The position numbers and the translations under genes are program-made. From positions 138,643 through 202,642 of the forward strand of contig CAZWJT010000002.1 in assembly GCA_964634935.1 (NCBI GenBank): a stretch of 64,000 bases of DNA, read 5' to 3'. Below are positions 1-57,220 of this stretch, in pieces; within the stretch, counting starts at the first letter, position 1, and each line of letters opens with the position of its first letter. The notes beneath the pieces were generated by a model. The model saw only the letters and a list, made by a program, of their open reading frames with translations. It was not told the DNA's origin and made no database searches. Source of the stretch: an uncultured Planctomycetia bacterium. GTDB taxonomy: Bacteria; Omnitrophota; Gorgyraeia; Duberdicusellales; Duberdicusellaceae.

Positions 1-552
1 AACTTTATCTTCCCCGATGACGATCTTGAGTCTCTTGATATCTTCACGCAGAGTATTTCGTTGCTCTGGGAAGAACGATTAGTCAAAGAACGCATTCGTG
101 AGCTTGACATCCGTGATCCTCTCACTGGACTTTATAGTGAACAGCATATTCATTCAGCATTCATCGCGGCAATGAATCTGGCTTTAGAACGTCATACTCC
201 CTGCGGCTTTATTCTTTTGAGGGTTTACGATTTTCAGTCAACCGATTTGGCAATACCTTCGAGAAAGGTAGAATATTCGTTAAAAAAAGTAAGTGATTTG
301 ATACTTGCTCACCTTGATATTTTTGATAAAGCTGGTCGCATTGGCGACGAACAATTTGCAATTATTGTTCCCAAAAAAAGCAAATCAGCCGTGGAGAAGA
401 AATCGTCCGATATCATCACTGACATCAATGAATTTATTTCTTCAAATACCATAGGTATCCGTTTCTCAGTGGCATCGGCGGTAGTCGAGAGTCCCATTGA
501 TGGCGTAAGTGCAGAGGAGCTTTTGCGTAAAGCGCAGCAAAATCTCCGGTAG
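1..552 (+). CDS. GGDEF-domain protein, C-terminal part (5' end lies upstream of the window); active-site motif degenerate (RIGDEQF instead of RYGGEEF)
   Basis: Frame 1 is open from base 1. The translation contains DPLTGLYSE (GGDEF domain start) and AGRIGDEQFAIIVP at the GG[DE]EF position. No RxxD I-site lies directly upstream. Stop at 550-552. Confidence 0.55.
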   Translation, partial: NFIFPDDDLESLDIFTQSISLLWEERLVKERIRELDIRDPLTGLYSEQHIHSAFIAAMNLALERHTPCGFILLRVYDFQSTDLAIPSRKVEYSLKKVSDLILAHLDIFDKAGRIGDEQFAIIVPKKSKSAVEKKSSDIITDINEFISSNTIGIRFSVASAVVESPIDGVSAEELLRKAQQNLR

Positions 553-558: not shown

Positions 559-1005
559 ATGTATCTGAAAAGAAAAATAAATAAACCATTAGGGCAGCTT
601 TTGATTGAGCGGGGTCTTTTAACTACAGTTCAGCTAGAAAAGGCCCTGGGATTACAGCGTGAAAAAGGGGGATTGATCGGTGAGGTTATTATCTCGTTGG
701 GTTTTGTTACTGAAATAGAAATAGCCCACGCCTTGTCGCTGCAATATGGATTTCCTTATTTGCCCCTAGAGAATTACGGTATTTCACCCGAAGCTTTGGC
801 AACAATCCCGCGCCAAGTAGCAGAGCAATACTGCCTGGTTCCTCTTGATAAGGTTGGCAATACACTAATGGTCGCCACCGCTGATCCTTTAAATAGTCAT
901 GCGATCGAAGATATTGAATATTTAAGCGGATGTGCGGTGCAAATTTTTGTCAGCACGGTTTCGGATATTCGGAATGCGATCTCTAAGTACTATGCTCAAT
1001 CATAA
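559..1005 (+). CDS. Standalone MshEN / T2SSE_N domain protein (c-di-GMP-binding N-domain of GspE/MshE type, no ATPase domain)
   Basis: 148 aa. The N-terminus carries two tandem 24-aa motifs matching the MshEN c-di-GMP consensus RLGxxLLxxGLLxxxxLxxxLxxQ: PLGQLLIERGLLTTVQLEKALGLQ, a 5-aa spacer REKGG, then LIGEVIISLGFVTEIEIAHALSLQ. The rest resembles a GspE N-terminal domain (…LVPLDKVGNTLMVATADPLN…). Confidence 0.7.
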   Translation: MYLKRKINKPLGQLLIERGLLTTVQLEKALGLQREKGGLIGEVIISLGFVTEIEIAHALSLQYGFPYLPLENYGISPEALATIPRQVAEQYCLVPLDKVGNTLMVATADPLNSHAIEDIEYLSGCAVQIFVSTVSDIRNAISKYYAQS

Positions 1006-1086: not shown

Positions 1087-2784
1087 ATGGATTTTAAGGA
1101 AAAAATAATTACCGCACTTGAAGAAAGTAAGATTCTCGATAAAGAAAAAATAGAAGAAATTCTTCTTCGCCACAAACAGGAAGGCGGCAGCCTCGTCGAA
1201 ACATTTATTCGCTCAGGGTACATCAACGAGACTGAATTTTTGAGTATTTTATCCGCAAGTCTTTCGATTCCATCCATCGAACTTTCAAAGATTGAAATCG
1301 CGCCTGAGATCATAGCGAGTATTCCAGCACCGTATATCTGGAAGTACAGGGTTATTCCTTTTGGAAAGATAGAAAAAACGCTTACTGTTGCAGTAATTGA
1401 TCCTTTTGAATTATTTGCTTTCGATGATTTAGAACGATTGACAGGCTTTACCTTAAATCCCGTGCTTGCTTCACGTAAAGAAATTGAGGCAGCGTTGAAT
1501 AAATATTATCGTGAGCCCGTCGCTGATGAGATGGAAACATTATTGAATACTATTCCTGAGGGCGGTTCCATTGAAGTAGTAGGGGGGGCACCGGAGGAGA
1601 AGGAAGCGGAGGTCACCGTCCAGGCAATCCAAGAGGGGCCAGTGATCAAATTAACTAATTTTTTACTTGCTCAAGCCGTACAAATGCGCGCTTCAGATGT
1701 TCTTATTGAGCCTCTTGAGAAAAAAATGAGAGTCCGCTATCGAATTGATGGTGTTCTTGAAGAAATAGAGTCTCCGCCGTTCGCTATGTTCCCGTTTATT
1801 GTTTCTCGGATTAAAGTTATGTCAAATCTTGATATTGCGGAGCATCGGCTGCCCCAAGATGGTAGATTTCGTATTAAGCAGCGCGAGAATGACATTGATT
1901 TTCGTGTTTCTATCGTTCCTTCTATTCTTGGTGAAAAAGTTGCCTTGCGCATACTTGATAAAAGTGCTGCCGCGCTCGATATCGAAAAACTCGGATTTCT
2001 TGATGAATCAATAGCGGTTATTAAGAAGATTTCTTCTCGTCCGCACGGTATGATTATTTCCTGTGGACCAACTGGATCCGGGAAGACGACAACCCTTTAT
2101 TCCATACTCAAGCATATTTATTCTCCGACAAAAAATATTATTACAGTCGAGGATCCTGTTGAGTATGAAATGAAAGGGATTAATCAGGTTAACGTGGACA
2201 CTGAAGTCGGGTTAACCTTTGCTTCTTCTCTGCGGGCTATCCTTCGGCAAGATCCCGACATCATCATGGTAGGTGAGATCAGGGATTTTGAGACCGTTGA
2301 CATCGCGATTAAAGCTGCCCTTACGGGCCATCTTGTTCTTTCAACGCTTCATACCACAACCGCTGTTGGATCGTTAATACGTCTCATCAACATGGGAATA
2401 GAACCGTTTTTGATTACTTCATCGTTAATTGGGATTATTGCTCAGCGGCTCTTGCGCAAGCTTTGTGAAAAGTGTAAAGAGCAGTATGTGGTATCAACAG
2501 TTATTCTTGATACTTTGAAGATTCGCGAGAAAAACGTACAATTTTATCGAGCGAAAGGATGCCGAGAATGCAATATGACAGGTTATCGGGGAAGGATTGG
2601 GGTTTGTGAAACATTAGCCGTGAGCGAGCAGTTGCGTGAAAAAATTCTTGCGAATGCCTCCGAGGGTGAAATTTTTGCATTAGCATGTTCACTGGGCATG
2701 AAATCATTCAAGGAAGATGCGCGCCAAAAAGTGATAAGCGGATCAACATCACTGGAAGAAGCCTTGCGGACAGTGGGGGTGTGA
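1087..2784 (+). CDS. pilB: GspE/PilB-family type IV filament assembly ATPase, paralog 1
   Basis: 565 aa. Has an N-terminal T2SSE_N domain, Walker A GPTGSGKTTT, Asp box, His box (TLHTTTAVGS) and a C-terminal tetra-Cys zinc site (CEKCKEQY…CRECNMTGYRGR). Confidence 0.85.
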   Translation: MDFKEKIITALEESKILDKEKIEEILLRHKQEGGSLVETFIRSGYINETEFLSILSASLSIPSIELSKIEIAPEIIASIPAPYIWKYRVIPFGKIEKTLTVAVIDPFELFAFDDLERLTGFTLNPVLASRKEIEAALNKYYREPVADEMETLLNTIPEGGSIEVVGGAPEEKEAEVTVQAIQEGPVIKLTNFLLAQAVQMRASDVLIEPLEKKMRVRYRIDGVLEEIESPPFAMFPFIVSRIKVMSNLDIAEHRLPQDGRFRIKQRENDIDFRVSIVPSILGEKVALRILDKSAAALDIEKLGFLDESIAVIKKISSRPHGMIISCGPTGSGKTTTLYSILKHIYSPTKNIITVEDPVEYEMKGINQVNVDTEVGLTFASSLRAILRQDPDIIMVGEIRDFETVDIAIKAALTGHLVLSTLHTTTAVGSLIRLINMGIEPFLITSSLIGIIAQRLLRKLCEKCKEQYVVSTVILDTLKIREKNVQFYRAKGCRECNMTGYRGRIGVCETLAVSEQLREKILANASEGEIFALACSLGMKSFKEDARQKVISGSTSLEEALRTVGV

Positions 2785-4472
2785 TGAAGAGTTTTAAAGA
2801 GAAGATTCGAGATTTATTGGTGGCAAAAGGAATTCAATTCCATGATGGTCTTTTAAATGACGCAAAGAATTCTAATGATCTGAAAAAGCTTCTGCTTGCG
2901 CAAAACTGGCTTACTGAAACCGAATTTCTCGGTTTTCTCTCGCAGGAGCTGGAGATTCCGTATATCGATATAAAAAAATATACCGTTTCTCCGGAAAATA
3001 CGAGTTATATTCCTGAGGACATAGCGTTTCAATATCGGGTTTTTCCGCTATCTCGGCTTAAAAATTCACTTACGATAGCAACCGCTAATCCGTTAGATGT
3101 CTTGACGCTTGATGACATAAAATTAAAGTTACAGGTTGATTTACAGCTTGTTCTTGCCAATGAGACCGATATTCTCGCTTTGCTCAATAAACTATACAAA
3201 AAAGAAGAGACATTTTCTTCGTTGCTTGCCCAGGCATCGACTGACTCGGATTTTAATGTAGCCCAAGATAAGTCTTCAGAGATTCTCGCGTCTGAAGGAT
3301 TTGACTTGCTGGCTGAAAGTAAAACGGCCCCAATCGTTAAAATCGTTGACCTCTTTGTTTATGAAGCTCTCTCCAAACGGGCGTCAGATATTCACATTGA
3401 ACCTACGGAGTTTGTTCTTAAGGTACGATATCGCATTGACGGTCTTTTGCAAGATGCTTTTGATATCCCACGGAAGAATCAGAATGCCATATTTGCCCGC
3501 TTGAAGATTATGTCGGGATTGAATATTACCGAAACGAAAATTCCACAGGACGGTCGATTTAAGGTGAAAATGCAGAGCCGGGAGGTTGATTTTAGGGTTT
3601 CGTCGTTGCCTACCCGTTACGGAGAAAAATTTGTTCTTCGGGCTCTCGATAAAAGTAACCTTTCTATAGGGCTTGACAAGCTTGGTTTTTCTGATGTCCC
3701 TCGGCAGCTCTTTGAGGCGGCGGTTAAGAAACCCTTTGGGATTATTCTCGTTACCGGACCAACTGGTAGCGGAAAGTCCACGACACTTTACTCCATTGTG
3801 AACTATTTAAATGGTGCCGATCGCCATATTGTGACCATAGAAGATCCGGTTGAATATCAAATACAGGGGTTGACCCAGATTCCTGTCAACGCTGAATTGG
3901 GATTGACTTTCGCGGCAGCTCTTCGCGCGGTACTGCGTCAATCTCCGGATATTATCATGGTTGGTGAAATCCGGGATTCCGAAACCGCCGATATTGCGAT
4001 AAAAGCTTCACTGACCGGAGAGCTTATTTTTTCGACGCTTCACACCAATGATTCCGTTGGAGCTATTATTCGGCTTGCCGATATGGGGATTGAGCCTTTT
4101 CTTTTGGCATCTTCCCTTTTGCTCACCTCTGCGCAGCGACTCTGCCGGAGGATTTGCCCTCACTGTAAGAATCCCAGTAAGCCTCCGGAGTATCTGCTCA
4201 AGAAATTGCAGATTGTTCAGCACGATGCTGTATTTTTTGAAGGGAAAGGATGTGTAGAATGCAATAATACGGGATATCACGGACGCGAAGCGCTCTTGGA
4301 AGTTTTGGCAATCGATGATACAATAAAAGAAATGATTGTGAGGCGAAAATCAGAGCAAGACATACTTGAATATGCTCGGGCAAATCTTCATTTTCGTAGT
4401 TTGCGGGAAGACGGCATTGAAAAATGCCTTCGAGGCGTAACAACCCTTGAAGAAATACTTCGGGTGACTTAG
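2784..4472 (+). CDS. pilB: GspE/PilB-family type IV filament assembly ATPase, paralog 2
   Basis: 562 aa from the ATG at 2784, which overlaps the paralog-1 stop (TGATG). Has T2SSE_N domain, Walker A GPTGSGKSTT, TLHTNDSVGA and a tetra-Cys site CPHCKNP…CVECNNTGYHGR. The ORF-track start at 2685 is an upstream in-frame extension inside paralog 1. Confidence 0.85.
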   Translation: MKSFKEKIRDLLVAKGIQFHDGLLNDAKNSNDLKKLLLAQNWLTETEFLGFLSQELEIPYIDIKKYTVSPENTSYIPEDIAFQYRVFPLSRLKNSLTIATANPLDVLTLDDIKLKLQVDLQLVLANETDILALLNKLYKKEETFSSLLAQASTDSDFNVAQDKSSEILASEGFDLLAESKTAPIVKIVDLFVYEALSKRASDIHIEPTEFVLKVRYRIDGLLQDAFDIPRKNQNAIFARLKIMSGLNITETKIPQDGRFKVKMQSREVDFRVSSLPTRYGEKFVLRALDKSNLSIGLDKLGFSDVPRQLFEAAVKKPFGIILVTGPTGSGKSTTLYSIVNYLNGADRHIVTIEDPVEYQIQGLTQIPVNAELGLTFAAALRAVLRQSPDIIMVGEIRDSETADIAIKASLTGELIFSTLHTNDSVGAIIRLADMGIEPFLLASSLLLTSAQRLCRRICPHCKNPSKPPEYLLKKLQIVQHDAVFFEGKGCVECNNTGYHGREALLEVLAIDDTIKEMIVRRKSEQDILEYARANLHFRSLREDGIEKCLRGVTTLEEILRVT

Positions 4473-4473
4473 T

Positions 4474-5679
4474 ATGGCTCTTTTTGAATATATTGCGAAA
4501 AATCAGGAAGGAAAAGTTTTTAAGGGGCGGGTGGATGAACTTTCCAAAAGCAAGGTCATTGATATACTCCACTCAAAGAACCTCGTTATTATTTCGATTA
4601 GCGATGTTAAGAAAAAACTTTTTGATTTTAAGTTTGCCCAGTCGGTAACCCCTGAAGAAATCGTCATTTTTTGCCGGCAGTTGACGACGCTCATTGATAG
4701 TGGAGTTTCATTAGTCCAGTCGGTTGAGATATTAAATGAACAAACAAAAAACCAAAAACTTCGAGAAATATTATCCCGTGTTTTAACCGATGTCCGTGAG
4801 GGAAATGCATTTCACGCATCACTTGCAAAATTTCCCGCAGTATTTTCTTCTTTCGTCCTCAGTATGATAAAAGCTGGAGAGGCATCGGGGAATCTGCCAG
4901 AAATTTTGGACAGGGTAAGCACATATCTTGAAGAATCACTTTCTTTGCAGCGCAAAGTAAAATCCAGTCTTACGTATCCCGCGGTTGTCATTTGTATGGC
5001 GATTGCTATAACTACTTTTTTGATCGTAAAAGTAATCCCGACCTTTAAAGGAATTTTTGATTCTTTGGGCGGAACCTTGCCGCTTCCTACGCAAATGCTG
5101 TTGAGTCTGAGCGATTTTTTAAGCAGATTTATTTTTCTTTTTCTTGGTATTCTGGTCGCAGCCGGAATCGCGTTCAAGCGTTATCTTCGTACGGATCGGG
5201 GAAAAAAACAATTTGATTTTTTAATTTTGAAGTTGCCTATTATCGGCGATTTATTGAGAAAAGTTGCTATTGCTCAGTTCTGCCGGACATTTTCGACTCT
5301 TGTTCGCAGCGGAGTACCCATTTTGAATACACTGGATATTGTGGGAGCAACTTCCGGCAATAAAATTATTGAAGCGGCGGTTCTTACGGCAAAAAAATCA
5401 GTTCAAGAGGGGGAGCCGCTTTCCGAGCCTCTTGCGAGGACAAACATTTTTCCGATCATGGTCACTCGTATGATTGCAATCGGAGAGAAAACAGGAAAGC
5501 TCCAGGAGATGCTTTCGCGAATCGCCGATTTTTACACTGATGAAGTCAATACTGCGGTAGAGGGTTTAACAAGTATTATTGAACCTCTGATTATCGGCAT
5601 CTTGGGTGTTGTTATCGGAGGTATTGTTATTGCACTCTTTTTGCCGATTCTGAAAATTACCGAATTGGTTGGAGCATAA
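4474..5679 (+). CDS. pilC: PilC/GspF-family inner-membrane platform protein (two T2SSF domains)
   Basis: 401 aa. Duplicated T2SSF domain pattern (…GEASGNLPEILDRV… and …IGEKTGKLQEMLSRIADFY…) with three TM segments. Starts 2 nt after the upstream ATPase stop. Confidence 0.85.
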   Translation: MALFEYIAKNQEGKVFKGRVDELSKSKVIDILHSKNLVIISISDVKKKLFDFKFAQSVTPEEIVIFCRQLTTLIDSGVSLVQSVEILNEQTKNQKLREILSRVLTDVREGNAFHASLAKFPAVFSSFVLSMIKAGEASGNLPEILDRVSTYLEESLSLQRKVKSSLTYPAVVICMAIAITTFLIVKVIPTFKGIFDSLGGTLPLPTQMLLSLSDFLSRFIFLFLGILVAAGIAFKRYLRTDRGKKQFDFLILKLPIIGDLLRKVAIAQFCRTFSTLVRSGVPILNTLDIVGATSGNKIIEAAVLTAKKSVQEGEPLSEPLARTNIFPIMVTRMIAIGEKTGKLQEMLSRIADFYTDEVNTAVEGLTSIIEPLIIGILGVVIGGIVIALFLPILKITELVGA

Positions 5680-5717: not shown

Positions 5718-8700
5718 ATGAAAAGAGTTATATTGTTTTGTTTTTTCTTATTCATTACGGCTGGTATTTCCTTTGCTGCTACCGATCGTATTATACGCTA
5801 CGGTGAGCGTGTTGAGCAGTATTATCACGCGGGTGACTATGATGCAGTAATCCAGGTATGCCAAAAGATTCTCAATATCTCAGCACAGAACAATTTTGCT
5901 CGTGACTATATCAATAAAGCCGAAACTAATAAAACTATCCAAGCGGATATCGAGCGTCTCGTGGAGAGTGATAATGTTTTACTGGCTGAAGAAAAAATCA
6001 ATTATCTTTTGCGGGAATCACCAGGTTCTCGCAAATTGCAAAAATTGGAAAAGCAAGTTGCATATGCCAAGAGTAGGCTTCAGAAAAAGCTTTCTCAGGA
6101 AATGTATGGGTTTTCAGTTGAGCGAATCCGTGCATGCATTATGGAAAAGAAATTTGCTCAAGCCCAATCATTGCTCGATGGATTGAAGAAGCGCCATCCG
6201 GAAAATGCCGAAATGCGAACACTCTCAAAAACACTTGCACAGCGCGTTGAACAAGACAAGCAGGAAAAATTCATTGCTCAGCGTTCATCAGATATCGCCA
6301 GTATCACCGAGCGTATTGATGCGGCTTTGCGCAACAATGAATTTTCCAGTGCGCGAGGTGCTCTTACCCAGCTTACCCAGGCATATCCTTCGGATTCTCT
6401 CGTGAATGCTCGCGCTGTTTCTCTTGAGCAAAAGATTAAGTTATCAGAGGCAAGCTTTCTGAAAGAAAAAGAAAGAAACGAAAAGGCTGAGTTGCTCAAA
6501 GAGCAAAAATTCACCCAAGAAATGGCGGATATCGAAACAATGATGCAAAAGGAAAACTATACCGACGCGGAACAGCGTTTGCTTATGCTCAAGAAAAATT
6601 ATCCACAGAAGGGCGCCGAAGTGGACAACCAGTTTACACAGTTGGAGCAGATTCAGAAATTATCTCGGGAGGTTAATTCCTTGCTTCTTTCAGAGTTATT
6701 TGATCAAGCTCTCGAGCGCACGCGAGTTTCACGAGAATTCTATGGTGGTAACGCGCATATTCTTGAACTTCTGAATAATTGGGACAGGAAAATAATCACT
6801 TCAAAGGTACGCGCATTAGAATCGTTAGAGAAAAGGAAAGTAGAAGAGGGGAAAAAGCAATTTTTCACCGATATCGGAACGCTGCGTATTTTGATTGATG
6901 AAAAGAAATTTGCTCAAGCCCAATCATTGCTCGATGGATTGAAGAAGCGCCATCCGGAAAATGCCGAAATGCGAACACTCTCAAAAACACTTGCACAGCG
7001 CGTTGAACAAGACAAGCAGGAAAAATTCATTGCTCAGCGTTCATCAGATATCGCCAGTATCACCGAGCGTATTGATGCGGCGATAGAAAAATCAGATTTT
7101 ACACGAGCATTCGAAGCAACGGAGGAGTTGCGCAAGAGCTATCCTGGCGATTCTTTGGTATCCAAAACGGCAATTTCTCTTGATAAAAAAATCTCTTCCC
7201 AGAGAACACGCTATCTCAGTGAGGTACAGAAGAAAGAAAGAAGCGAGCAGGAAAAGACGCTTGCGGCACAGAAAGAAGACCTACGGAATTCTACCGCGGG
7301 TATGGAGGATGCAATTCGAAAGGCTGATTTCGATGAAGCAAAAAAGATTCTATCGGGCTTAAAAGAAAGACATCCCTCAGCAAAGGAAATTCAGGAAACT
7401 GCAGTTTCTTTCGGAAATAAGATAAAGACCGCCGAAGAAGCCTTCCTGCGCAAAAACCAGCAGAAAGAAAAACAACTTTTTACTGCGACTAAAGAAAGCG
7501 ATGCATTAACGATAAGCCAAACGGTTCTCAATCATATAGAAGCAGCTGACTTTTCAGCCGCCCGCGCTGCTCTTCACAGTTATAAAGCAAAATACTTGAA
7601 AGAGCAGGATGCCCAAAAGAAAGTTTTGCTTCTTGAGGAAAAAATCAAGACAGCTGAGCATCTCCATCAGAACCAACAAGAAGAAATTCGGAAAAAATTC
7701 ACCCAAGAAATGGCGGATATCGAAACAATGATGCAAAAGGAAAACTATACCGACGCGGAACAGCGTTTGCTTATGCTCAAGAAAAATTATCCACAGAAGG
7801 GCGCCGAAGTGGAAAAGGTCCTACAAAGAGTAGAATCGGCGCTCGAAAAAGTTAAGATAGAACAGGAAAAGAAAAGTGCCGCAGAAAAACGCCGCCAGCA
7901 GGAACGAGATCTCATTTTCGCTCAGAGATTAGAAGGAATCACCACGCTTATTACACAACAGAAGTTTGCTGAGGCTAAGAATAGTTTGCTTTCGCTGCAG
8001 AAAGAGTTTCCGGAGTACCAGCAAATCAAAGAATTTTTAAAAGATATTGATTCCAGAATTCAACAGCATAATGTCGAACAAAAAAAGATTGCCGCACGCA
8101 AGGAAAACACCGAAGACAATGTCATGCAGGAGCTTGCTGTGCGCTTTAACGCTGCTTATTCAAAGAAGCAATACGTTGAAGCTCAGAATATACTCACACA
8201 CTATAAAAGTACTTTTCCCGCATACAAAAAAATTCATTCATTTACCGAAGAAAAATTTGCTTTGCTCCGAAAAGTTCGCGCTGAAGAAAATTTAAAACAG
8301 AACCTAAAAACTCAAAAATCTTTTGGTCATGCAACGTTAGCAAAGGATGAGTTGGTTGCTCAAGTCGAGGTGCTTATTCATGATGAATATTTAGCACGGA
8401 ATGATTTCGAAGGCGCGCGGATGGTCCTGGGTGAATTCGACAGTAATTTTTCCATCGATCCATATCTCGAGCAAAAAATAAAATCGATTGGACGTACGAT
8501 TAACCAAGCAGAAGAGCGCCATAAATCATTAGCAGGTATTTCGACTACGGGTTATGGCGATGAAGTTCTTGATGGGAAAATCGCGAAACTTGAAATGTTC
8601 ATTCAATTAGGCGATTTTATCAACGCCCGCAATCTTTCTGATGAACTTTTACGAACTTATCCGGAGAATATTCAAGTGAGAACCCTTGCGGAAACGTTAA

Positions 8701-8813
8701 ATCGGAAGCTCAAAAAGACACGAAAACAAGATCCAGCGCGAACGCCGATTCCTGAAAATGCGGTAAGCAAAGAAAAAAAGAATCCCCCGGCGTATCTCGA
8801 GAAACGCAGTTAA
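5718..8813 (+). CDS. Secreted 1031-aa helical repeat protein (TPR-like ~70-aa modules with recurring x-F-x-x-A-x-x-x-L-x-x-L-x-x-x-[YFH]P motif); function unknown
   Basis: Signal peptide MKRVILFCFFLFITAGISFA. K/E-rich. Recurrent module, e.g. KKFAQAQSLLDGLKKRHPENAEM, ADFDEAKKILSGLKERHPSAKEI, QKFAEAKNSLLSLQKEFPEYQQI, KQYVEAQNILTHYKSTFPAYKKI. Contains perfect internal nucleotide duplications. Confidence 0.6.
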   Translation: MKRVILFCFFLFITAGISFAATDRIIRYGERVEQYYHAGDYDAVIQVCQKILNISAQNNFARDYINKAETNKTIQADIERLVESDNVLLAEEKINYLLRESPGSRKLQKLEKQVAYAKSRLQKKLSQEMYGFSVERIRACIMEKKFAQAQSLLDGLKKRHPENAEMRTLSKTLAQRVEQDKQEKFIAQRSSDIASITERIDAALRNNEFSSARGALTQLTQAYPSDSLVNARAVSLEQKIKLSEASFLKEKERNEKAELLKEQKFTQEMADIETMMQKENYTDAEQRLLMLKKNYPQKGAEVDNQFTQLEQIQKLSREVNSLLLSELFDQALERTRVSREFYGGNAHILELLNNWDRKIITSKVRALESLEKRKVEEGKKQFFTDIGTLRILIDEKKFAQAQSLLDGLKKRHPENAEMRTLSKTLAQRVEQDKQEKFIAQRSSDIASITERIDAAIEKSDFTRAFEATEELRKSYPGDSLVSKTAISLDKKISSQRTRYLSEVQKKERSEQEKTLAAQKEDLRNSTAGMEDAIRKADFDEAKKILSGLKERHPSAKEIQETAVSFGNKIKTAEEAFLRKNQQKEKQLFTATKESDALTISQTVLNHIEAADFSAARAALHSYKAKYLKEQDAQKKVLLLEEKIKTAEHLHQNQQEEIRKKFTQEMADIETMMQKENYTDAEQRLLMLKKNYPQKGAEVEKVLQRVESALEKVKIEQEKKSAAEKRRQQERDLIFAQRLEGITTLITQQKFAEAKNSLLSLQKEFPEYQQIKEFLKDIDSRIQQHNVEQKKIAARKENTEDNVMQELAVRFNAAYSKKQYVEAQNILTHYKSTFPAYKKIHSFTEEKFALLRKVRAEENLKQNLKTQKSFGHATLAKDELVAQVEVLIHDEYLARNDFEGARMVLGEFDSNFSIDPYLEQKIKSIGRTINQAEERHKSLAGISTTGYGDEVLDGKIAKLEMFIQLGDFINARNLSDELLRTYPENIQVRTLAETLNRKLKKTRKQDPARTPIPENAVSKEKKNPPAYLEKRS
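6144..6325 (+). repeat. 182-bp perfect direct repeat, copy 1 (copy 2 at 6900-7081), in frame within the repeat-protein gene
   Basis: I read the two stretches as base-for-base identical (gaaaagaaatttgctcaagcccaatcattgctcgatgg … gagcgtattgatgcggc). They encode the identical peptide EKKFAQAQSLLDGLKKRHPENAEMRTLSKTLAQRVEQDKQEKFIAQRSSDIASITERIDAA. Confidence 0.85.
6505..6625 (+). repeat. 121-bp perfect direct repeat, copy 1 (copy 2 at 7693-7813), in frame within the repeat-protein gene
   Basis: Identical run aaaaattcacccaagaaatggcggatatcgaaacaatgatgcaaaagg … gggcgccgaagtgga. Encodes KFTQEMADIETMMQKENYTDAEQRLLMLKKNYPQKGAEV twice. Confidence 0.85.
6900..7081 (+). repeat. 182-bp perfect direct repeat, copy 2
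   Basis: Identical to 6144-6325 by my reading. Confidence 0.85.
7693..7813 (+). repeat. 121-bp perfect direct repeat, copy 2
   Basis: Identical to 6505-6625 by my reading. Confidence 0.85.
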
Positions 8814-40960: not shown

Positions 40961-41479
40961 ATGAATACACGATTGGAAAAAAACATTTTTTTAGTTGGTT
41001 TTATGGGCACAGGGAAAACAACGGTAGGTAAAATTCTCGCACAGCGCTTGGAATATCAGTTTTTCGATATCGATGCTTCCATTGAAGACCAAGAAAGAAG
41101 AACGATCGCTGCAATTTTTCAACAGCAAGGCGAAGTCTATTTTAGATTGCTGGAAAAAAAACTGTTATTCTCGATGGATGGGAAAACGCGAGTTGTTGTT
41201 TCCTGCGGTGGAGGAATTATCCTGGACCGCGAAAACAGAAATTTCATAAATACACGCGGGATAAGTGTTTGTCTTTCCGCGACCGTGGAAACAATCTGCA
41301 ACCGGCTTAAAAACTCCGTGGATCGACCACTCCTTGCCGTAGAAAATCCTCAGGAAAAAATTCATCAACTTCTTGCTGAGAGACATGAATTTTACAGCCA
41401 GGTGCCGATTCAAATCGATACAACCTATCTATCGGCAGAACAGGTTGCCGAAACAATCATCGAGGCAGCTTTGCTATGA
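40961..41479 (+). CDS. aroK: Shikimate kinase
   Basis: IFLVGFMGTGKTTVGKILAQRL Walker A, 172 aa, SK family pattern (…FFDIDA…, …VVSCGGG…). Confidence 0.85.
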   Translation: MNTRLEKNIFLVGFMGTGKTTVGKILAQRLEYQFFDIDASIEDQERRTIAAIFQQQGEVYFRLLEKKLLFSMDGKTRVVVSCGGGIILDRENRNFINTRGISVCLSATVETICNRLKNSVDRPLLAVENPQEKIHQLLAERHEFYSQVPIQIDTTYLSAEQVAETIIEAALL

Positions 41480-42540
41480 GAACGAAAGCTTGTCTACTTC
41501 TCAATATGGTGCCTGGGTTACGGGTAAATATCGCGGCCGATTTCTTGCGTAGCGTAAGTACGGACGATCAAATATTTTCGTTTGGCGTGTCAGACTTTAT
41601 CGAACACGGGATTAATCCCTTATCTGCTGAAAAAATACTCCAAATACGAAAGAGCGGTTGCCTGGAGTCAGAATATGCTGCTTTGCAATCCCAAGAAATA
41701 ACAGTGATCACCATTTTTGATGAAGAGTATCCTCAACTACTCCGTGAGATTTCGGATCCGCCGCTTGTCCTGTATCTTAAAGGAAACCCTCAGGTACTCA
41801 AAAAGAAATGTTTTGCTGTTGTTGGATGTCGGCTTGCATCGGCATACGGCCTAAGTTGCGCAGAAAAATTTTCCTATGAATTGGGCGCCTATGGCTTTGT
41901 TATCGTTTCTGGTTTAGCCAGAGGTATTGACACAGCGGCTCATTTAGGATCTCTTAGAACTTCGCAAACTATTGCAGTTTTGGGCTGTGGTTTACATCAA
42001 ATATATCCGAGTGAGAATGCGTCACTTGCCGAGCGAATCATTCAGAATGGATGTTTGATTTCAGAATTTCCGCTGAATACCAAACCCCTGCGTGAGCATT
42101 TTCCAAGACGCAATCGCATTATCAGCGGTTTGTCGCATGGCATATTGGTGGTTGAAGCTGCTCAACGAAGCGGCTCGTTAATCACCGCTCACTATGCAGC
42201 TGAGCAAGGCCGGGAAGTTTTTGCCGTTCCTGGCCCGATTACTTCACCACAAAGTCAAGGAGTTCATCAGCTCTTAAAGGAAGGTGCGAAACTTGTAGAA
42301 AATATTGAGGACATACTTGCTGAATTTGGCATCTTTGACGCGAAAGTTCATGGCGAAAGCGCTGTTCTTTCAGTACAAGAAGAATCAGTTCTTTCAATTC
42401 TCAAAGAACGCGAAAAAACCATTGACGATATTATGCTGGAAAGCAGTTTGAGTGTTTCCGATGCCCTTGAATGCCTATTCCATTTACAAGAAAAACACCT
42501 TGTCAAAGAATTGCCGGGAAAATGGTACACAAAAATCTAG
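41476..42540 (+). CDS. dprA: DNA processing protein DprA (Smf)
   Basis: Rossmann-like DprA core VVGCRLASAYGL…SGLARGIDTAAHLGSL…VVEAAQRSGSLITAHYAAEQGREVFAVPG plus a C-terminal wH domain. Overlaps the aroK stop by 4 nt. Confidence 0.85.
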   Translation: MRTKACLLLNMVPGLRVNIAADFLRSVSTDDQIFSFGVSDFIEHGINPLSAEKILQIRKSGCLESEYAALQSQEITVITIFDEEYPQLLREISDPPLVLYLKGNPQVLKKKCFAVVGCRLASAYGLSCAEKFSYELGAYGFVIVSGLARGIDTAAHLGSLRTSQTIAVLGCGLHQIYPSENASLAERIIQNGCLISEFPLNTKPLREHFPRRNRIISGLSHGILVVEAAQRSGSLITAHYAAEQGREVFAVPGPITSPQSQGVHQLLKEGAKLVENIEDILAEFGIFDAKVHGESAVLSVQEESVLSILKEREKTIDDIMLESSLSVSDALECLFHLQEKHLVKELPGKWYTKI

Positions 42541-46733: not shown

Positions 46734-47736
46734 AATCATTTTCTTTTATTTGCGGCTTATCCATTCTTCCCCAAGAAACGTTCTTTCGGCTCTTTTGTGT
46801 TTTTTTCTACGAGCCCTGTCATTTCTCTACGGAATTGTTGTTTTCTTAGTTGATAGACTTTATGCTTACCCTATATTTCAGCATGAAACATCGCTTAAAA
46901 TTGTCAGTATTGGAAATATTACATGGGGAGGCACTGGAAAAACTTCTCTGATACTGCTTTTAGCCAAGATATTGGCGCAAACACAAAGAGTGTGCGTTTT
47001 GACTCAGGGGTATGGGAAAGATGAAGATTTTTTGTTGCGGAAACACCTGAATCCTTTGGGAATCGACGTTTTTTCTCAAAAAGACCGTTTGCGTAAAATC
47101 AAAACCTTGGAAGGAAAATACGATATTGTTTTTCTTGATGACGGGTTCCAGTATAGAAAAGTGAAGCATACCGTCGATATTGTTGTATTGAATGCCGTTG
47201 AGCCGCTCGGAAATGGTTTTTTGATACCGAGGGGACAGTTACGAGAACCGATTACTGCCCTGAAACGCGCTCATATTTTTTTCATCAACCATTCGTTGTC
47301 AAAAAATGATTTATCCGAGCAATTAAAGCCCTATGTGTCTATCAAGCCAATGTTTCAAGGTTACTATGAGGCAGATTTTTTGTACGACCAAAATAACCAG
47401 CGTTATTCTCTTGGTTTTTTATCAGATAAGCCGTTTTTGGCTTTTTGCGCCATTGGTTATCCCGATGGGTTTCAACAAATCCTTGCACGCAATAATCTTC
47501 ATCCAAAGCATTTTCGCGCATTTCCAGACCATGCTCATTTAACTCATGCTGAATTTTTAAAGCTCGAACGTTACTGTTATCAGGAAAAAATACGCTATAT
47601 CGTGATTACTGAAAAGGACGCGTATCGTTTCCGAAACTATAGCACCCGACTTTGTATCTTGGTTTTATCAGTAAGTCTCTTTGTCGATAGAAAAAAGGAG
47701 TTCATCGATGAGTTGGCTCGCTTATTATCTTTGTAA
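46723..47736 (+). CDS. lpxK: Tetraacyldisaccharide 4'-kinase
   Basis: …PIFQHETSLKIVSIGNITWGGTGKTSL… (LpxK P-loop VGNLTVGGTGKTP pattern). The ATG at 46723 overlaps the waaA stop. Confidence 0.8.
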   Translation: MKNKIIFFYLRLIHSSPRNVLSALLCFFLRALSFLYGIVVFLVDRLYAYPIFQHETSLKIVSIGNITWGGTGKTSLILLLAKILAQTQRVCVLTQGYGKDEDFLLRKHLNPLGIDVFSQKDRLRKIKTLEGKYDIVFLDDGFQYRKVKHTVDIVVLNAVEPLGNGFLIPRGQLREPITALKRAHIFFINHSLSKNDLSEQLKPYVSIKPMFQGYYEADFLYDQNNQRYSLGFLSDKPFLAFCAIGYPDGFQQILARNNLHPKHFRAFPDHAHLTHAEFLKLERYCYQEKIRYIVITEKDAYRFRNYSTRLCILVLSVSLFVDRKKEFIDELARLLSL

Positions 47737-49591
47737 GCTATTCAGCATATTTTTTTGTCTTATGCCGCTCAATTCGGCTTTGGCTTTCGGCCGCATAGCC
47801 GGAAACTTCGCTTATGCATTTAGCTCCCATAGGCGTGTTATCGCCCTCAAAAACTTAAAACTTGCGTTTCCCGAGCGATCCGAAAAAGTCTTAGTGCGTC
47901 TTATCCGCAAAATGTTCGAAAATTTCGGTATGGCAACTGTTGAAATTTTACGTATTCCAAAGATCGCCCGCGGCTCTCAAAAGACTCATTTTTCAATTGA
48001 AGGAGAAGAATTTTTCCGTGAGCTTTGTCGCGAGCGAGGAATTGCCCTTGGTATTCATATGGGAAGCTGGGAGCTTCTCAACGGCTTGTTAGTTGAGTAT
48101 TTTCCTTACGCGGTATTAGCCAGAAAACAAAAGATTACGGGACTTGACCGCTTTTTGAATGAGCTACGATTATACCATGGAACTTCGGTTATTTTTGAGA
48201 ACGAACTTCTAAAAATGGCAAAATATCTGCGGGAAGGTTACGTTTTAGGTTTAGTTTTTGATCATGGTGGAAGTGATTCTGATTTGAATGTACCGTTTTT
48301 CGGAAAACGTGTTCCAGTGCCTGCGGGAGCCTTGAGGCTTGCTTATCGGTTTCATAAGAAAATATTTCCATGCGCACTACATCGTAAGAGTCATGGACAT
48401 CATGTATTGCAGGTTGGAGCACCTCTCACGATCGATAGTGAAAATATGTTTTTCGAGTATGCCTTAACGCTTCACCGTATTTTTGAAGGATATATCCGGA
48501 TGCATCCAGAAGAGTATCTCTGGTTCTTCAAGCGCTTTAAAAGAAGCGTTGATACGAAACTTCTTGTTCTTTCTGATGGAAAGGCTGGACATCTAAAGCA
48601 ATCACAGGCAATAGCTGAAATAGTCAAGACAAACTTTGAACGAGTGAGCGTTGAAGAAATCGAAGTTTCTTTGACATACCTGCAAAGATTTTTTCTGAAT
48701 TCTCTGCTCGGTATTCTATATATTCGGCGCAAACGCCAGAGCCGTTTCTTTAAAATAATTCTCGGTAGGCAGTTTGATAGGATTTTTCGGTACGCGGATT
48801 TGGTTGTTTCTACGGGAGGGGCTTTGTCGTCATTAAACAGAATCTTTAGTTGGATGATGGACGCAAAATCAATTAACATTTTTCGTCCAGCAATCGCATC
48901 TCAGACTTTTGACCTTCTTTTTATTCCGCGTCATGATCACCCAGCGAATCTCAAAAATCTAGTCCAGTTTGAGGGAGCTATCGTTTCTCAGGATATCGAC
49001 AATATTGAACGGGGTAAAAAACATCTACTCGAGAGTATACCAAGCTATTCATCCGATCTTCCCGTTCTCGGTATTTTTTTGGGCGGTCCGGTAAAGGGCA
49101 GAGGGTTTTCTCTGGAAATCGAAAAATTGTTCTCGGTTTTTCGGCGTATTCATTTGATGCGTCCAATACAACTTTTTATCAGTACGTCACGCAGAACACC
49201 TTCGTTGTTTGAAGAAAAAATCGAGCAGATGTCCCAAGGTAACCCACTAGTTAAAATTTTCATTTCGTCAGAGAAAAACAATTTTCCATTTGCGAGTGAG
49301 AGCATCATGGCTTTGTCGAGCTTAGTAATTGTTACAGCAGATTCTATTTCCATGCTTACTGAAAGTTGTACGCTTGCTCCAGCAACGATAGCACTCAACG
49401 CTTTCGACAGATTTATGCTTCCTCGAAAACATGGTAGATTTCTGATGGAACTCGAAAAACGGAACCATATCGCATCCGTAACCGTTGATGGATTGTTCGA
49501 TGAATGTGTTTCGGTTCTCTTAAAAAATAAAACGTTTGCGAAACTCGACAACACACAGAATATTATCGAATCATTGAAAACAATCATATGA
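47681..49591 (+). CDS. Fusion protein: LpxL/HtrB-type lipid A late acyltransferase (N-terminal ~290 aa) fused to an ELM1/DUF1022-family domain (C-terminal ~340 aa)
   Basis: N-terminal …LAFGRIAGNFAYAFSSHRRVIALKNLKLAFPE… and the HxxxxD-position region (…HMGSWELLNG…) are typical of the LPLAT/LpxL family. C-terminal LLVLSDGKAGHLKQSQAIAE…VTADSISMLTES matches ELM1/DUF1022 hallmarks (lsdgk.Gh.nQ…, tADSvSMlsEa). A single uninterrupted ORF of 636 aa. Confidence 0.65.
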   Translation: MSIEKRSSSMSWLAYYLCKLFSIFFCLMPLNSALAFGRIAGNFAYAFSSHRRVIALKNLKLAFPERSEKVLVRLIRKMFENFGMATVEILRIPKIARGSQKTHFSIEGEEFFRELCRERGIALGIHMGSWELLNGLLVEYFPYAVLARKQKITGLDRFLNELRLYHGTSVIFENELLKMAKYLREGYVLGLVFDHGGSDSDLNVPFFGKRVPVPAGALRLAYRFHKKIFPCALHRKSHGHHVLQVGAPLTIDSENMFFEYALTLHRIFEGYIRMHPEEYLWFFKRFKRSVDTKLLVLSDGKAGHLKQSQAIAEIVKTNFERVSVEEIEVSLTYLQRFFLNSLLGILYIRRKRQSRFFKIILGRQFDRIFRYADLVVSTGGALSSLNRIFSWMMDAKSINIFRPAIASQTFDLLFIPRHDHPANLKNLVQFEGAIVSQDIDNIERGKKHLLESIPSYSSDLPVLGIFLGGPVKGRGFSLEIEKLFSVFRRIHLMRPIQLFISTSRRTPSLFEEKIEQMSQGNPLVKIFISSEKNNFPFASESIMALSSLVIVTADSISMLTESCTLAPATIALNAFDRFMLPRKHGRFLMELEKRNHIASVTVDGLFDECVSVLLKNKTFAKLDNTQNIIESLKTII

Positions 49592-51656
49592 AAGTCATCC
49601 AGTTGGTGCCTCGGCTTGATCTGGGCGGTGTTGAGCGCGGAACAGTCGATTTTGCCAAATATCTCGTAGAGAACAATCATGAAGCAATAGTTGTTTCTGC
49701 CGGTGGAGCCTATGTTGATCGTTTACGAAAGCTTGGAGTAAAGCATTACACCTTAGAGATTGATCGTAAATCACTTTGGACCATCCTATCCTCGATAAAA
49801 ACTCTCCGAAAAATTATTCTCAATGAACAGGCTGATATTGTGCATGCGCGATCACGCGTTCCAGCCATTATTGGTTATGTTTCTTCCCGGAAAACACAAG
49901 CTCAATTCATAACTACATGTCACGGATATTATTCTCAGAATTTCTTTGGTAAAGTCATGGGTTTCTCTCATCAGGTCATTTGTCCAAGCCAAGTCATAGC
50001 CCGTCATATGATTGATGATTTTGGGATTCCTGCGCGAAATATCGTTCTTATACCTCGCGGCCTCAATCTTGAGGAGTTTCCTTTCATATCGCCAGACAAA
50101 AAAGACCATTCAATGCTAAAAATCTGTTTTTTGGGAAGGATATCACCCATAAAAGGTATTGAATACTTTATTGAGGCGGCACAGAAGTATCTCGCTGAAC
50201 ATCAAAACGCTGAGTTTTATATCTGCGGAACTGCCGGTGCAAAACATGAAGGATATGAAAAATTCTTAAAAAAAATGGTTGTAAAGGCCGGCCTTGAGAA
50301 TAAAGTGATTTTTAAAGGCAAGGTGAATTCGGCGCTCATGTTGAGTGAATGCCATGTTCTTGTATTTCCTTCAGTCGTTCATGAGTCGTTCGGACGAGTT
50401 CTCATCGAAGCACAGGCAAGCGGGGTTGTTTGTATTGCTACTGCCCTTGGCGCTCCGGCAGAGATTATTGACGAAACAACAGGAATTTTAGTTACACCAA
50501 AAGATAGTGAAGCGATAAAGAATGCTCTCGAAAAAATTTCATTTGATGACGCATTCTATAAAAATTTAATCCTGTCAGCCAGAAAGAAAGTTGAAGAACA
50601 CTATTCGCTTTCGACCATGGGAGAAAAAACACTTTTAACCTATCGGCATGCGTTAGATCAAAAACATATATTGATCATAAAGATTTCGTCCCTTGGGGAT
50701 ATTGTACTGGCTGCTCCTTCAGTGAGTGGCCTTCGAGAAAAATTTCCTTCTGCAAAAATTTATTTTTTATGCGAGCATCGTTTTCGTGCTATTGCCGAAA
50801 CCATTCCAGGAATCGACAAAATTGTTGTTTTTCATGGTTCAAAAAACAAGTTTTCAGAATTATTTCGACTCAGCTCATTTTTCCGTAAATGCGATATCGA
50901 TATTGTTATCGATCTACAAAATACTTGGTTTTCTCATTTCTTGGCTTTCCTGGTTTTTGCAAAACATACGGTCGGGTATAATCGTAATTTTGGTTTTCTT
51001 CTCGATCAAAAAATCCCTTATGCGATGGCGCCTGGCGGACCAGTTGAGTCTCAAAAAAAGATTCTTGAATGTGTTGATGCTCAGCCCCAAATGAAAACGC
51101 CGTGGTTGCAAACTGAAAAATCAATCAACGATCGCTGCTCCAATTTGTTATCTCTTTACGGTATTTCTCCGGCTGACCGTCTTGTAGGAATCAATCTTCG
51201 GGCATCAACTCAGTGGAAGACAAAGGGTTTTTCCTTATCGTCTATCCTTGAGATTACATCTTACCTGTTACGTCGGAATCAGGAGAAAATAATCTTTATC
51301 GGCGAACAGAATGTACGAGGATTTTCGGAAGAAATCGAAAAACATCTTGTGTCGTGGAGAATCATTAACCTCTGCGGGAAAACTGATATGGCTGAACTTG
51401 TTTCACTGATTAATCGGCTTACGCTTCTGATTACCCCGGATAGTGCGCCCCTCCATATCGCGCAAGCGTTTGGCGTAAAAACTATCGCATTTTTTGGACC
51501 GACTCTTGCTGAACGCCATTTAGTAAAAACGGGTGATGTTGAAATTATTACTTGCTCCGGACTTTCCTGCAAGGGTTGTTACAAAAAAGAGTGTTCTACC
51601 TATGCCTGTTTTTCTGAAATAAAACGCATTCCCGAAGCTATCGATCGACTGCTGCA

Positions 51657-51660
<4 letters not shown>
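49588..51660 (+). CDS. Bifunctional glycosyltransferase: GT1/GT4-family domain (N) fused to GT9 heptosyltransferase-like domain (C)
   Basis: N half: MKVIQLVPRLDLGGVERGTVD… E…E-containing GT-B GT4 pattern (…FPSVVHESFGRVLIEAQASGVVCIAT…). C half: ILIIKISSLGDIVLAAPSVSGLREKFPSAKIYFL…IDIVIDLQ…, the WaaC/WaaF GT9 signature. 690 aa, ATGA overlap with the upstream gene. Confidence 0.7.
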
Positions 51661-56579: not shown

Positions 56580-57219
56580 AGAAAAAAAGATTTATTTTTT
56601 CCTTTTTTCATTTATCTTTGGAATTATCCTTGTTTTTCCTGGAATGCTTCGTGCGCAGTCGAATCCTGAACCTTTTGTGTTAAAAAAGAAAGATTCTCCG
56701 CAATCATCACCCTGGTTTCTTCGCTGGATTCCTGAAAAGAAAAAGAAAACAGGAACTTCCGGCAAAAAAAACATACAACAAACCCAACCAGATCGGCCAT
56801 GCGCTGTGCTGGAACAAGATTTCAGCAGGTGCAAGCAAAATAATTCTCTGCTCAATGACCAACTAGCTACGACTATAAGCGAATTAGAAAATGCAAAGCT
56901 TGAACTTGAACGGCTTCGAAAGAATTTAAAAGCATTACAGAATTTTGTCGTAGCGGCAAATCTACTCACGAAAGAACAAATTGAAGAATTGCAGGATGGG
57001 AACTGGGAACTGACTCTGGAAAAACTCTTACAGACTCAAGGTAAGCCAGAACGCAGTGATTTTCATGAAGTAACCAAAGGGGAATCCCTCTGGAGTATTG
57101 CCCAGAAAGAATACAACAACCCTTATAAGTGGCTCCTTTTGTATCATGCGAACAAAGACCAGATTTATGATGCAGACCTCATCTACCCCGGAATGGTTCT
57201 TATTATCCCTCGATATTAG
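56560..57219 (+). CDS. LysM-domain coiled-coil protein with N-terminal signal/anchor
   Basis: MEKKLHREKKIYFFLFSFIFGIILVFPGMLRA. Coiled-coil segment …LATTISELENAKLELERLRKNLKAL… C-terminal LysM HEVTKGESLWSIAQKEYNNPYKWLLLYHANKDQIYDADLIYPGMVLIIP. The track ORF start at 56284 is an extension overlapping the PEP-CTERM gene. Confidence 0.7.
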   Translation: MEKKLHREKKIYFFLFSFIFGIILVFPGMLRAQSNPEPFVLKKKDSPQSSPWFLRWIPEKKKKTGTSGKKNIQQTQPDRPCAVLEQDFSRCKQNNSLLNDQLATTISELENAKLELERLRKNLKALQNFVVAANLLTKEQIEELQDGNWELTLEKLLQTQGKPERSDFHEVTKGESLWSIAQKEYNNPYKWLLLYHANKDQIYDADLIYPGMVLIIPRY

Positions 57220-57220
57220 C

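Follow-up and report, generated by a model that had tools for sequence, protein, structure and literature searches.

Two old and separately maintained PilB-type assembly ATPase genes beside a single platform gene in a type IV pilus locus of Omnitrophota

Type IV pilus extension is commonly attributed to one PilB hexamer. The main exception so far is the PilB/TfpB pair of Acinetobacter baylyi, the one instance studied by experiment in which two extension ATPases serve the same machine (Ellison et al. 2021, PMC8213720). There, two phylogenetically distinct PilB-type ATPases, as divergent from each other as PilB is from GspE, serve one pilus machine with one PilC, and distinct, non-interchangeable roles have been proposed for them. 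In this report, we will focus on two PilB-type genes, pilB-A and pilB-B, that lie in tandem just upstream of a single pilC in 64 kb of DNA of the phylum Omnitrophota (positions 138,643 to 202,642 of contig CAZWJT010000002.1), a stretch that we will call the window and whose own coordinates are used throughout. Unlike the Acinetobacter genes, these two are adjacent, they are accompanied by a solo MshEN-domain protein and a degenerate GGDEF partner, they belong to another phylum, and neither of them is a TfpB. We will argue that in the Omnitrophota the assembly of type IV pili probably relies on two motors, not on a single one.

As far as the arrangement is concerned, the best analogy is that of PilT and PilU, which are likewise paralogous hexameric ATPases of the same superfamily, adjacent and derived from a system-specific duplication, and the second of which depends on the first (PMC6762196; PMC6668835). 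These are, however, retraction-type enzymes without N1D or Zn site, whereas the Omnitrophota duplication is on the PilB assembly side. The only system-specific ATPase duplications recognised in a survey of type IV filaments across complete genomes are PilB/PilT and PilT/PilU (PMC6668835), to which the Omnitrophota pair would add a third duplication at the level of the system (PilB/PilB). A 2024 review poses as open questions what several PilBs are for in some bacteria and whether they form hetero-oligomers (PMC11656802), and a literature search, not complete in its coverage, returned no paper on the Omnitrophota pair. With its complementary changes in coupling motifs and its detached sensor domain for cyclic di-GMP (c-di-GMP), the pair would offer a natural system for testing motor cooperation or heteromer formation. 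It also bears on the surface machinery of a phylum that is uncultured and whose very small cells are thought to be host-dependent.

The gene pilB-A (1087..2784, forward strand) encodes a PilB/GspE-type hexameric ATPase of 565 amino acids with N1D (MshEN), N2D, CTD and Zn site, and pilB-B (2784..4472, forward strand) a second ATPase of this type, of 562 amino acids, both assignments being based on Pfam, NCBIfam and a tree. The two proteins are 41% identical across 563 residues (E 6e-149). Pfam places an MshEN domain (formerly T2SSE_N) at residues 60-144 of PilB-A (1.1e-19) and 57-142 of PilB-B (4.6e-19), followed by a T2SSE domain at residues 182-561 (1.3e-134) and 179-560 (3.7e-131), respectively. 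Such E-values leave no room for chance. For both, the best family is TIGR02538, the equivalog of the type IV-A pilus PilB, with 606.9 bits for PilB-A and 583.1 bits for PilB-B against a cutoff of 675.65; the orthologs in the related locus L080 reach 651 and 604 bits. They are PilB-like, short of equivalog status. Scores also stay below the cutoffs of the GspE model (TIGR02533, 582.8 and 569.3 bits, cutoff 630.25), the TfpB model (NF053534, 431.8 and 426.7 bits, cutoff 850) and the PilT/PilU model (TIGR01420, 184.3 and 177.5 bits, cutoff 319.1). At about 565 amino acids, with N1D and four Zn-site cysteines, they differ from PilT and PilU, which have about 350 amino acids, no N1D and no Zn site, and their best matches in the PDB are the PilBs of Geobacter and Myxococcus. 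An earlier note on this DNA, made from the sequence alone, had taken both proteins for extension-type ATPases of the PilB/GspE clade and neither for a PilT/PilU, and this is what the profiles bear out. The placement relative to GspE, MshE and TadA comes from profile scores and gene context, not from a tree with those sequences.

The order of the genes around the pair is conserved. Eight loci of relatives were read, L001-L003 from species-representative genomes and L078, L080 and L082-L085 through homologs of PilB-A with 52-60% identity. In all eight, the gene of a solo MshEN protein is followed by pilB-A and, next to it, by pilB-B, and a gene for a (HAMP)-GAF-GGDEF sensor lies upstream in seven of them, L083 being the one that lacks it. 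The platform gene pilC comes after pilB-B wherever the contig of the relative reaches that far, with one PilC per locus. In the window, pilC (4474..5679, forward strand) starts 1 nt after the stop of pilB-B and encodes a PilC/GspF platform protein of 401 amino acids (T2SSF, 4.9e-67, in two stretches; PilC models NF052607 and NF052606 as top NCBIfam matches). It is the sole T2SSF gene at the locus, so that the single platform gene proposed earlier is indeed there.

Beyond pilC, the loci L080 and L082-L085 carry genes for proteins with the N_methyl pilin domain, PilM, an unnamed open reading frame and PilO, after which L080 and L082-L084 have a small protein and a secretin, while the sequence of L085 ends within PilO. 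A gene for PilT stands between those of the sensor and the solo MshEN protein in L003, L080 and L082-L084 (355 amino acids in L080 and L082-L084; 485 bits with TIGR01420 in L080), and no PilT occupies this place in the window-type loci L001, L002, L077, L078 and L085. Because the loci of relatives carry pilins, PilM, PilO, a secretin and PilT, the locus type can be read as a type IVa pilus locus of Omnitrophota, in which a single platform, a single alignment complex and a single secretin go with two PilB-type genes. The context is not that of a type II secretion system (T2SS), which would be GspC, L, M and pseudopilins. The paired PilB module was present in every Omnitrophota locus examined. 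Furthermore, for 17 ortholog pairs of the two proteins in the two match lists the longest contig has the same length, an indirect sign which suggests that they too are co-located.

The closest database proteins of both ATPases bear the names Candidatus Omnitrophota or Omnitrophica. Some records with an Omnitrophota-type module, among L001 (CAZSAI010000001.1), P0147 and P0054, are labelled Planctomycetia, Aenigmatarchaeota or Atribacteria, odd labels that are probably due to errors of binning or labelling.

At the junction of the two genes (GGGGGTGTGATGAAG, also given as GTGTGATGAAG), the sequence TGATG (2782..2786, forward strand) joins the stop of pilB-A (2782-2784) to the start of pilB-B (2784-2786), whose ATG uses the A of the preceding TGA, so that the 1-nt overlap described earlier is real. 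The frame of pilB-B is open from 2685, and the start at 2784 is backed in three ways. In the alignment of the paralogs, residue 4 of PilB-B (the F of FKEKI) pairs with residue 3 of PilB-A (MKSFKEKI and MDFKEKI, respectively); in L001, the frame of the ortholog opens only past the stop of pilB-A; and the independent gene call in L077, where the DNA of the window itself comes from an independent assembly of a second data set, gives 10001-11698 and 11698-13386 for the two genes. The stretch GGGGG at 2775-2779 is G-rich and lies 5-9 nt upstream of the start. In the relatives, the spacing from pilB-A to pilB-B is +2, +3, +6, +6, +15 and +67 nt, which means that it stays between -1 and +15 nt in six of seven loci, the gap of 67 nt being that of L082. 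The tight linkage is thus conserved and the 1-nt overlap itself is not. Translational coupling, which had been proposed from the overlap, is possible and need not be obligatory. Scans for promoters and terminators across positions 1-10200 gave counts no higher than expected from shuffled sequences and are uninformative on the operon.

The age of the pair can be gauged from its orthologs. Among the matches listed for PilB-A, at least 120 proteins are 51-66% identical to it, and among those listed for PilB-B, at least 120 others are 53-68% identical to that protein. A first neighbour-joining tree was built from 197 sequences over 551 columns (60 A-type, 60 B-type, 69 PilBs of other phyla and 8 PilT outgroups), in which the A clade and the B clade each have a bootstrap of 100% and their union one of 81%. 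The mean Kimura distance is 0.53 among A-type and 0.55 among B-type sequences and rises to 1.01 from A to B, the latter being about the distance of either to the PilBs of other phyla. In an enlarged tree of 212 sequences, with 89 more metagenomic PilBs added, both clades again have 100%, including the pair of a deeper relative, L086, which already carries the two genes with their diagnostic residues. A and B are thus two old lineages that were separately kept, and their origin is likely a duplication within the phylum.

The residues needed for catalysis are retained in both lineages. In the window, neither gene has a frameshift or an internal stop. The Walker A motif is GPTGSGKT in PilB-A (2065..2088) and GPTGSGKS in PilB-B (3756..3779), the Asp box is EDPVEY in both, and so is the atypical Walker B with the catalytic Glu, DIIMVGEIRD. 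The four cysteines of the Zn site, arranged as two CxxC pairs, are C460, C463, C492 and C495 in PilB-A (2464..2571) and C458, C461, C490 and C493 in PilB-B (4155..4262), and they are 100% conserved in both clades. The Walker A Lys, the Glu residues of the Asp box, the catalytic Glu, the Arg fingers and the second His of the His box are conserved at about 100% in both. Separate clades with 100% support, motifs that were kept and fixed changes proper to each clade are what leads us to see in A and B an old, maintained and apparently subfunctionalised pair, and not a recent or decaying duplicate. The earlier note had named two findings that would speak against its view, namely a recent, pseudogenising duplicate and orthologs that are never adjacent in relatives. 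The more than 120 orthologs of each protein, with 51-68% identity, and the adjacency in all eight loci are the opposite of both, and the pairwise identity and the phylogeny that it had called for gave the 41% and the separate clades reported above.

The two clades differ by fixed changes. These were sought in 115 columns of the alignment whose conservation reaches 90% or more in the PilBs of other phyla with which they were compared, with counts over 123 A-type and 122 B-type sequences, and they were cross-checked in the context loci and in a second background set, which brings the PilBs of other phyla to about 135 in all. In PilB-A, the N2D motif ASDIHIEP reads ASDVLIEP (1690..1713), and the His has become Leu (codon 1702-1704). 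In the A clade this position is Leu in 119, Phe in 3 and Met in 1 of the 123 sequences and His in none, whereas the His is kept in 122 of 122 members of the B clade and in the approximately 135 PilBs of other phyla. The His box of PilB-A, TGHLVLSTLHT (2323..2361), has both His and is followed by TT where others have ND, this change from HTND to HTTT being found in 121-123 of the 123 sequences. In addition, Cys326 (2062-2064) replaces the usual Thr before Walker A, with Cys in 110 of the 123.

The changes of PilB-B are of another kind. Its His box, TGELIFSTLH (4014..4043), keeps the second His, the one in contact with the gamma-phosphate, and has Glu (codon 4020-4022) in place of the first, which corresponds to H413 of Geobacter PilB. 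In the B clade, this position is Glu in 98, Gln in 21, Thr in 2 and His in 1 of the 122 sequences, whereas the first His is kept in the A clade and in all of the approximately 135 PilBs of other phyla. Directly 5' of Walker B and the catalytic Glu, PilB-B has RQSPD (3936..3950) instead of the usual RQDPD. The Asp of this motif is Ser in 119 and Thr in 3 of the 122 B-type sequences, while it is Asp in 123 of 123 A-type sequences and in 97% of the other PilBs. Finally, GINQ has become G(I/L)TQ in 119 of the 122. The full extension-type architecture that had been claimed for both proteins therefore stands for MshEN, Walker A and B and the four cysteines, but not for the first His of the His box in PilB-B nor for the His of ASDIH in PilB-A. 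To our knowledge, such a reciprocal loss of an invariant His has not been described for PilB/TfpB.

Structures of related enzymes indicate where these residues lie. In the PilB of Geobacter metallireducens, H420 contacts the gamma-phosphate, H413 and H420 sandwich T411, whose backbone is in contact, across the closed interface, with the P-loop of the next packing unit, from which the authors concluded that cooperativity between chains is mediated by the His box (PMC5424180). The closed interface of PilT likewise has the ASDxH Asp among its contacts (PMC6858323). A full-text search for this motif brought up nothing pertinent, and it is only through the neighbouring Asp (D32 in PilT) that a role can be proposed, by analogy, for the N2D His. 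Both proteins thus appear to be altered in the inter-subunit interface that couples ATP turnover, each in a different element, and reciprocal, clade-specific and fixed substitutions of this type read as the signature of subfunctionalisation. The Cys before Walker A of PilB-A was also considered as a contact to the His box of the next chain, and this was rejected by alignment to 5tsg: the residue that makes this contact in Geobacter PilB, T327, corresponds to the P-loop Thr (A329 in A), which is conserved. Variable sites of the two proteins showed no pattern of covariation across about 20 matched pairs, too few for an analysis of coevolution; for instance, the alternation of Glu and Gln in the His box of PilB-B does not covary with that of Glu and Asp at E402 of PilB-A. 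In the PilB-B of L080, L082 and L084 (542 amino acids), the loop between the Cys pairs of the Zn site is about 30 residues shorter, and the four Cys are kept.

The second particularity of the locus is found upstream of the pair, in two conserved partners that were absent from the earlier note, the solo MshEN protein and the degenerate GGDEF sensor. The first (559..1005, forward strand) is a MshEN/GSPII-domain protein of 148 amino acids (Pfam MshEN, 1.5e-19) and a candidate c-di-GMP receptor. The MshEN motif consists of two 24-residue units RLGxxLLxxGLLxxxxLxxxLxxQ in tandem, separated by a 5-residue spacer (PMC5013675), and the solo protein matches it at 20 of 22 positions with a spacer of 5 residues (PLGQLLIERGLLTTVQLEKALGLQ-REKGG-LIGEVIISLGFVTEIEIAHALSLQ), with the caveat that the first residue of each motif is not Arg. 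It reaches 56.6 bits with the c-di-GMP motif model NF053729, above the cutoff of 38, while PilB-A of the window stays below with 24.3 bits and PilB-B has no match at E up to 10. Solo orthologs, which lie directly upstream of pilB-A in L001-L003, L078 and L080-L085, keep 18-21 of the 22 positions, whereas the mean is 16.7 in the A clade and 11.4 in the B clade. The best PDB matches of the solo protein are the GSPII-A domain of the Thermus PilF, the N1D of the Geobacter and Myxococcus PilBs and the MshEN structure 5htl.

The sensor gene enters the window with its C-terminal part (1..552, forward strand; Pfam GGDEF, 4e-14), in a frame that is open from base 1, and its full length of 443 amino acids, with GAF and GGDEF domains, is seen at 8135-9466 in L077. 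Its GGDEF signature is GDEQF, which departs from the GG[DE]EF of active cyclases, and the five orthologs aligned with it (from L001, L002, L003, L078 and L080) are all degenerate as well (ADSQF, RDDKF, SEDTL, GDNEF and DYDEF). Since the signature is degenerate in six of six aligned sequences, the sensor is unlikely to be a diguanylate cyclase and looks like a conserved pseudo-cyclase. In L078, and also in L079, a 1377-amino-acid GGDEF-AAA_16-HEAT protein and a second solo MshEN protein are encoded between pilB-B and pilC (11473..16069 in L078), the latter with 171 amino acids and a c-di-GMP motif of 20 of 22 positions.

These partners can be compared to three known ways of connecting c-di-GMP to a pilus motor. 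The MshE of Vibrio cholerae and the Myxococcus PilB belong to the same domain family and share the tandem 24-residue motif with the solo protein (PMC5013675), but they bind c-di-GMP by their own MshEN, whereas here the sensing domain is a separate gene. The Thermus PilF resembles the Omnitrophota locus in that there are three GSPII/MshEN domains per pilus motor, only some of them competent for c-di-GMP; it differs in that the three domains of the Omnitrophota are on three polypeptides (solo, A and B), with two ATPase cores. In the FimX-PilZ-PilB system of Xanthomonas (PMC8389850), a degenerate c-di-GMP-metabolising protein and a small adaptor control PilB, which makes it a possible functional analogy. 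There, however, the proteins are GGDEF-EAL and PilZ and not GAF with degenerate GGDEF and MshEN, the adaptors are not homologous, and the Omnitrophota system is known from its genes alone. The solo protein may bind c-di-GMP and dock on PilB-A, on PilB-B or on both, and the c-di-GMP input would reach the motors through it, in a loose analogy to the Xanthomonas system or to the Thermus PilF.

Taken together, these features favor, tentatively and with a rough probability of 0.45, a machine in which two cooperating and functionally divided hexameric motors act on one PilC. PilB-A and PilB-B would form two distinct hexamers that alternate on, or cooperate at, the single platform, both paralogs being presumably competent in catalysis, equally constrained and acting on the same PilC. 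Their roles may be split, for example between initiation or priming and processive extension, as has been suggested for PilB/TfpB in Acinetobacter and as occurs with PilT/PilU in retraction, and there is precedent for two extension ATPases per machine with distinct roles (PMC8213720; PMC11656802). The c-di-GMP input, which enters MshE, Myxococcus PilB and Thermus PilF by a domain at the N-terminus of the ATPase itself, would here be largely delegated to the upstream solo MshEN protein and to the membrane sensor with its GAF and degenerate GGDEF domains.

Several observations weigh against such a machine, or against parts of it. The genes of pilins, PilMNO and secretin are absent from the 64-kb window, in which Pfam found no PilT, PilM, PilN, PilO or secretin and a motif search no N-terminal prepilin motif, so the link of the pair to a single pilus machine rests on the relatives. 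The union of A and B, exclusive in the point estimate of the enlarged tree, has a bootstrap of 27% there, and because this support falls from 81%, one of the two copies could have been acquired and not duplicated in situ. The ortholog of PilB-A in L080 passes the c-di-GMP model NF053729 with 48.7 bits, from which it follows that the loss of the motif in A depends on the lineage and that sensing is not universally delegated to the solo protein. Finally, as an important function has been reported for the first His-box His of PilT-like ATPases, PilB-B could be a slow or a non-motor subunit.

The alternative that survives best is that of an obligate mixed hexamer, for instance an alternating A3B3 ring, in which each type of subunit would give a different half of the interface. 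It is unlikely in our view, yet it accounts for much of what is seen. Adjacency persists in the eight loci despite the deep divergence, with a junction that is tight in most of them and overlapping in the window; the two proteins are equal in length and in constraint; there is one PilC per locus; and the reciprocal losses concern motifs of the closed interface, ASDxH in PilB-A and the His box in PilB-B. Interactions among different ATPases of type IV pili have also been reported in bacterial two-hybrid (BACTH) assays (PMC11656802). These points are offset by the 67-nt gap of L082, by which a 1:1 coupling is not enforced, and by the structural data, since a contact of the changed residues between A and B could not be shown from the literature and the contacts of the ASDxH region of PilT (D32-P271 and D32-G277) may be intra-chain. 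Moreover, opposite subunits differ in an alternating ring, and this is not easily squared with the C2 cycle that has been proposed for PilB. PilT and PilU, the tandem paralogs that have been studied best, are likewise encoded by adjacent genes and have each been solved as separate hexamers, and we know of no heteromeric PilB.

A more elaborate version adds to this obligate heteromeric PilB ring the split-off c-di-GMP-sensing domain as a third, free-standing subunit, and we find it similarly unlikely. If the heteromeric ring were true, the loss of the ASDIH His in PilB-A and that of the first His-box His in PilB-B would mark two non-equivalent interfaces, and the motor would have a built-in asymmetry, as in no known type IV filament motor. 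We return to two separate hexamers as the preferred reading.

These hexamers need not, in principle, serve the same machine. The two ATPases could be mere neighbors that belong to two filament systems, e.g. a retractile pilus and a pseudopilus of the T2SS-like or competence type, in line with the multiple PilB homologs that serve separate machines in many bacteria, without cross-complementation (PMC11656802). The scores of both proteins with the GspE model, which are near those with the PilB model, and the fact that the remaining parts of the machine are encoded at other places in the window's genome are compatible with this. It is nonetheless improbable, as the pair lies within one locus in all eight relatives, with a single PilC in every locus that reaches that far and, where present, a single PilM/O set and one secretin. 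By Pfam, the 64-kb window itself has no second platform gene. The order of pilB-A, pilB-B and pilC, which is fixed across a deep divergence, argues for a joint function.

One of the paralogs, PilB-B in the first place or else PilB-A, might also be a regulatory or scaffolding protein with an attenuated ATPase, which would modulate the other or act in disassembly. PilB-B has lost the first His of the His box and the Asp of RQDPD, and mutations in these motifs disrupt the activity and the function of PilT-like ATPases (PMC5424180); furthermore, a role in disassembly would suit the five window-type loci that have no PilT between the sensor and the solo MshEN genes. We give it little credence, because the Walker A Lys, the Glu residues of the Asp box, the catalytic Glu, both Arg fingers and the His that contacts the gamma-phosphate are invariant in more than 120 orthologs of PilB-B, whose divergence within its clade equals that of A. 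Besides, the PilT-like family as a whole shares a single His-box His (PMC5424180), so the loss of the other need not abolish catalysis. As for a recent tandem duplication with a decaying copy, or an artefact of assembly, adjacency alone would speak for it, and it can practically be dismissed because of the 41% identity, the independent assembly of the same DNA in L077, the two ortholog clades of more than 120 members each and the intact catalytic motifs in genes free of frameshifts and stops.

How unusual such a pair is was examined in 80 PilB loci from metagenomes, a background that is biased since it consists of the best matches to a PilB-B profile, mostly from other phyla and with 39-55% identity; the patterns used to scan the metagenomes (VGEIRDxET and TIE[DN]P[VI]EY) are universal. 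Two full-length PilB genes were found in 10 of the 80 loci, comprising one deep relative of the A/B pair (L086, with a solo MshEN gene), three other direct tandems and six loci of the order PilB-PilT-PilB-PilC. The latter order is that of Lentisphaerae-like loci (L004, L005, L100, L104, L115, L118, L150 and L153), which resemble the Omnitrophota locus in having two full-length PilBs and one PilC at one locus. Their PilBs are 40-50% identical to each other, usually with PilT between the two copies. In contrast to the Omnitrophota pair, they have a tree clade of their own, they retain the His of N2D as well as the two His of the His box, and no solo MshEN gene was seen with them. Most of the other background pairs group with L004 and L005 in this separate clade and have all the histidines too, so that this type was invented independently. 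In these loci the first copy has RQ(A/S)PN and the second GI(V/M/I)Q, and L127, L131 and L087 are tandem variants. Loci with two PilBs are thus under-described, not unique, and they are not rare in environmental DNA. Tandem extension ATPases with one platform protein had been called uncommon, which is true of textbook organisms and not of the Omnitrophota, where they are the rule, nor of the background loci.

The window, with a G+C content of 42%, continues directly 3' of pilC with the gene of a TPR-repeat protein of 1031 amino acids (5718..8813, forward strand; Pfam TPR families), whose membership in the pilus module is uncertain. It was considered as a counterpart of the TPR protein at the pilus locus of L085, which was rejected as the two have no similarity. 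As an internal repeat, the sequence SLLDGLKKRHPENAE occurs twice in the protein, at residues 151 and 403. Further 3' there are housekeeping genes, with a glgC-like gene, mnmG, lpxB, rpsB-tsf-pyrH-frr, genes of a phosphotransferase system, metK, uvrA, exbBD, genes for lipid A and lipopolysaccharide, and others. Among them is a gene for DprA (41476..42537, forward strand; DNA_processg_A, 4.5e-83) that adjoins topA and a gene for a xerC/xerD-type recombinase of the phage-integrase family. A DprA is compatible with DNA uptake via a pilus, but the gene lies at a distance of 36 kb and belongs to a widespread family. The gene at 57098..58903 (forward strand) encodes a protein of 602 amino acids, about twice the normal length of FliG, with FliG_M (3e-10) and FliG_C (2e-23) domains at its C-terminus, in a window that has no other flagellar genes. 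Finally, the lipopolysaccharide region contains two gene fusions on the forward strand, one of a lipid A acyltransferase with a Mito_fiss_Elm1 domain (47681..49588, 636 amino acids) and one of a GT4 glycosyltransferase with a GT9 heptosyltransferase (49588..51657, 690 amino acids).

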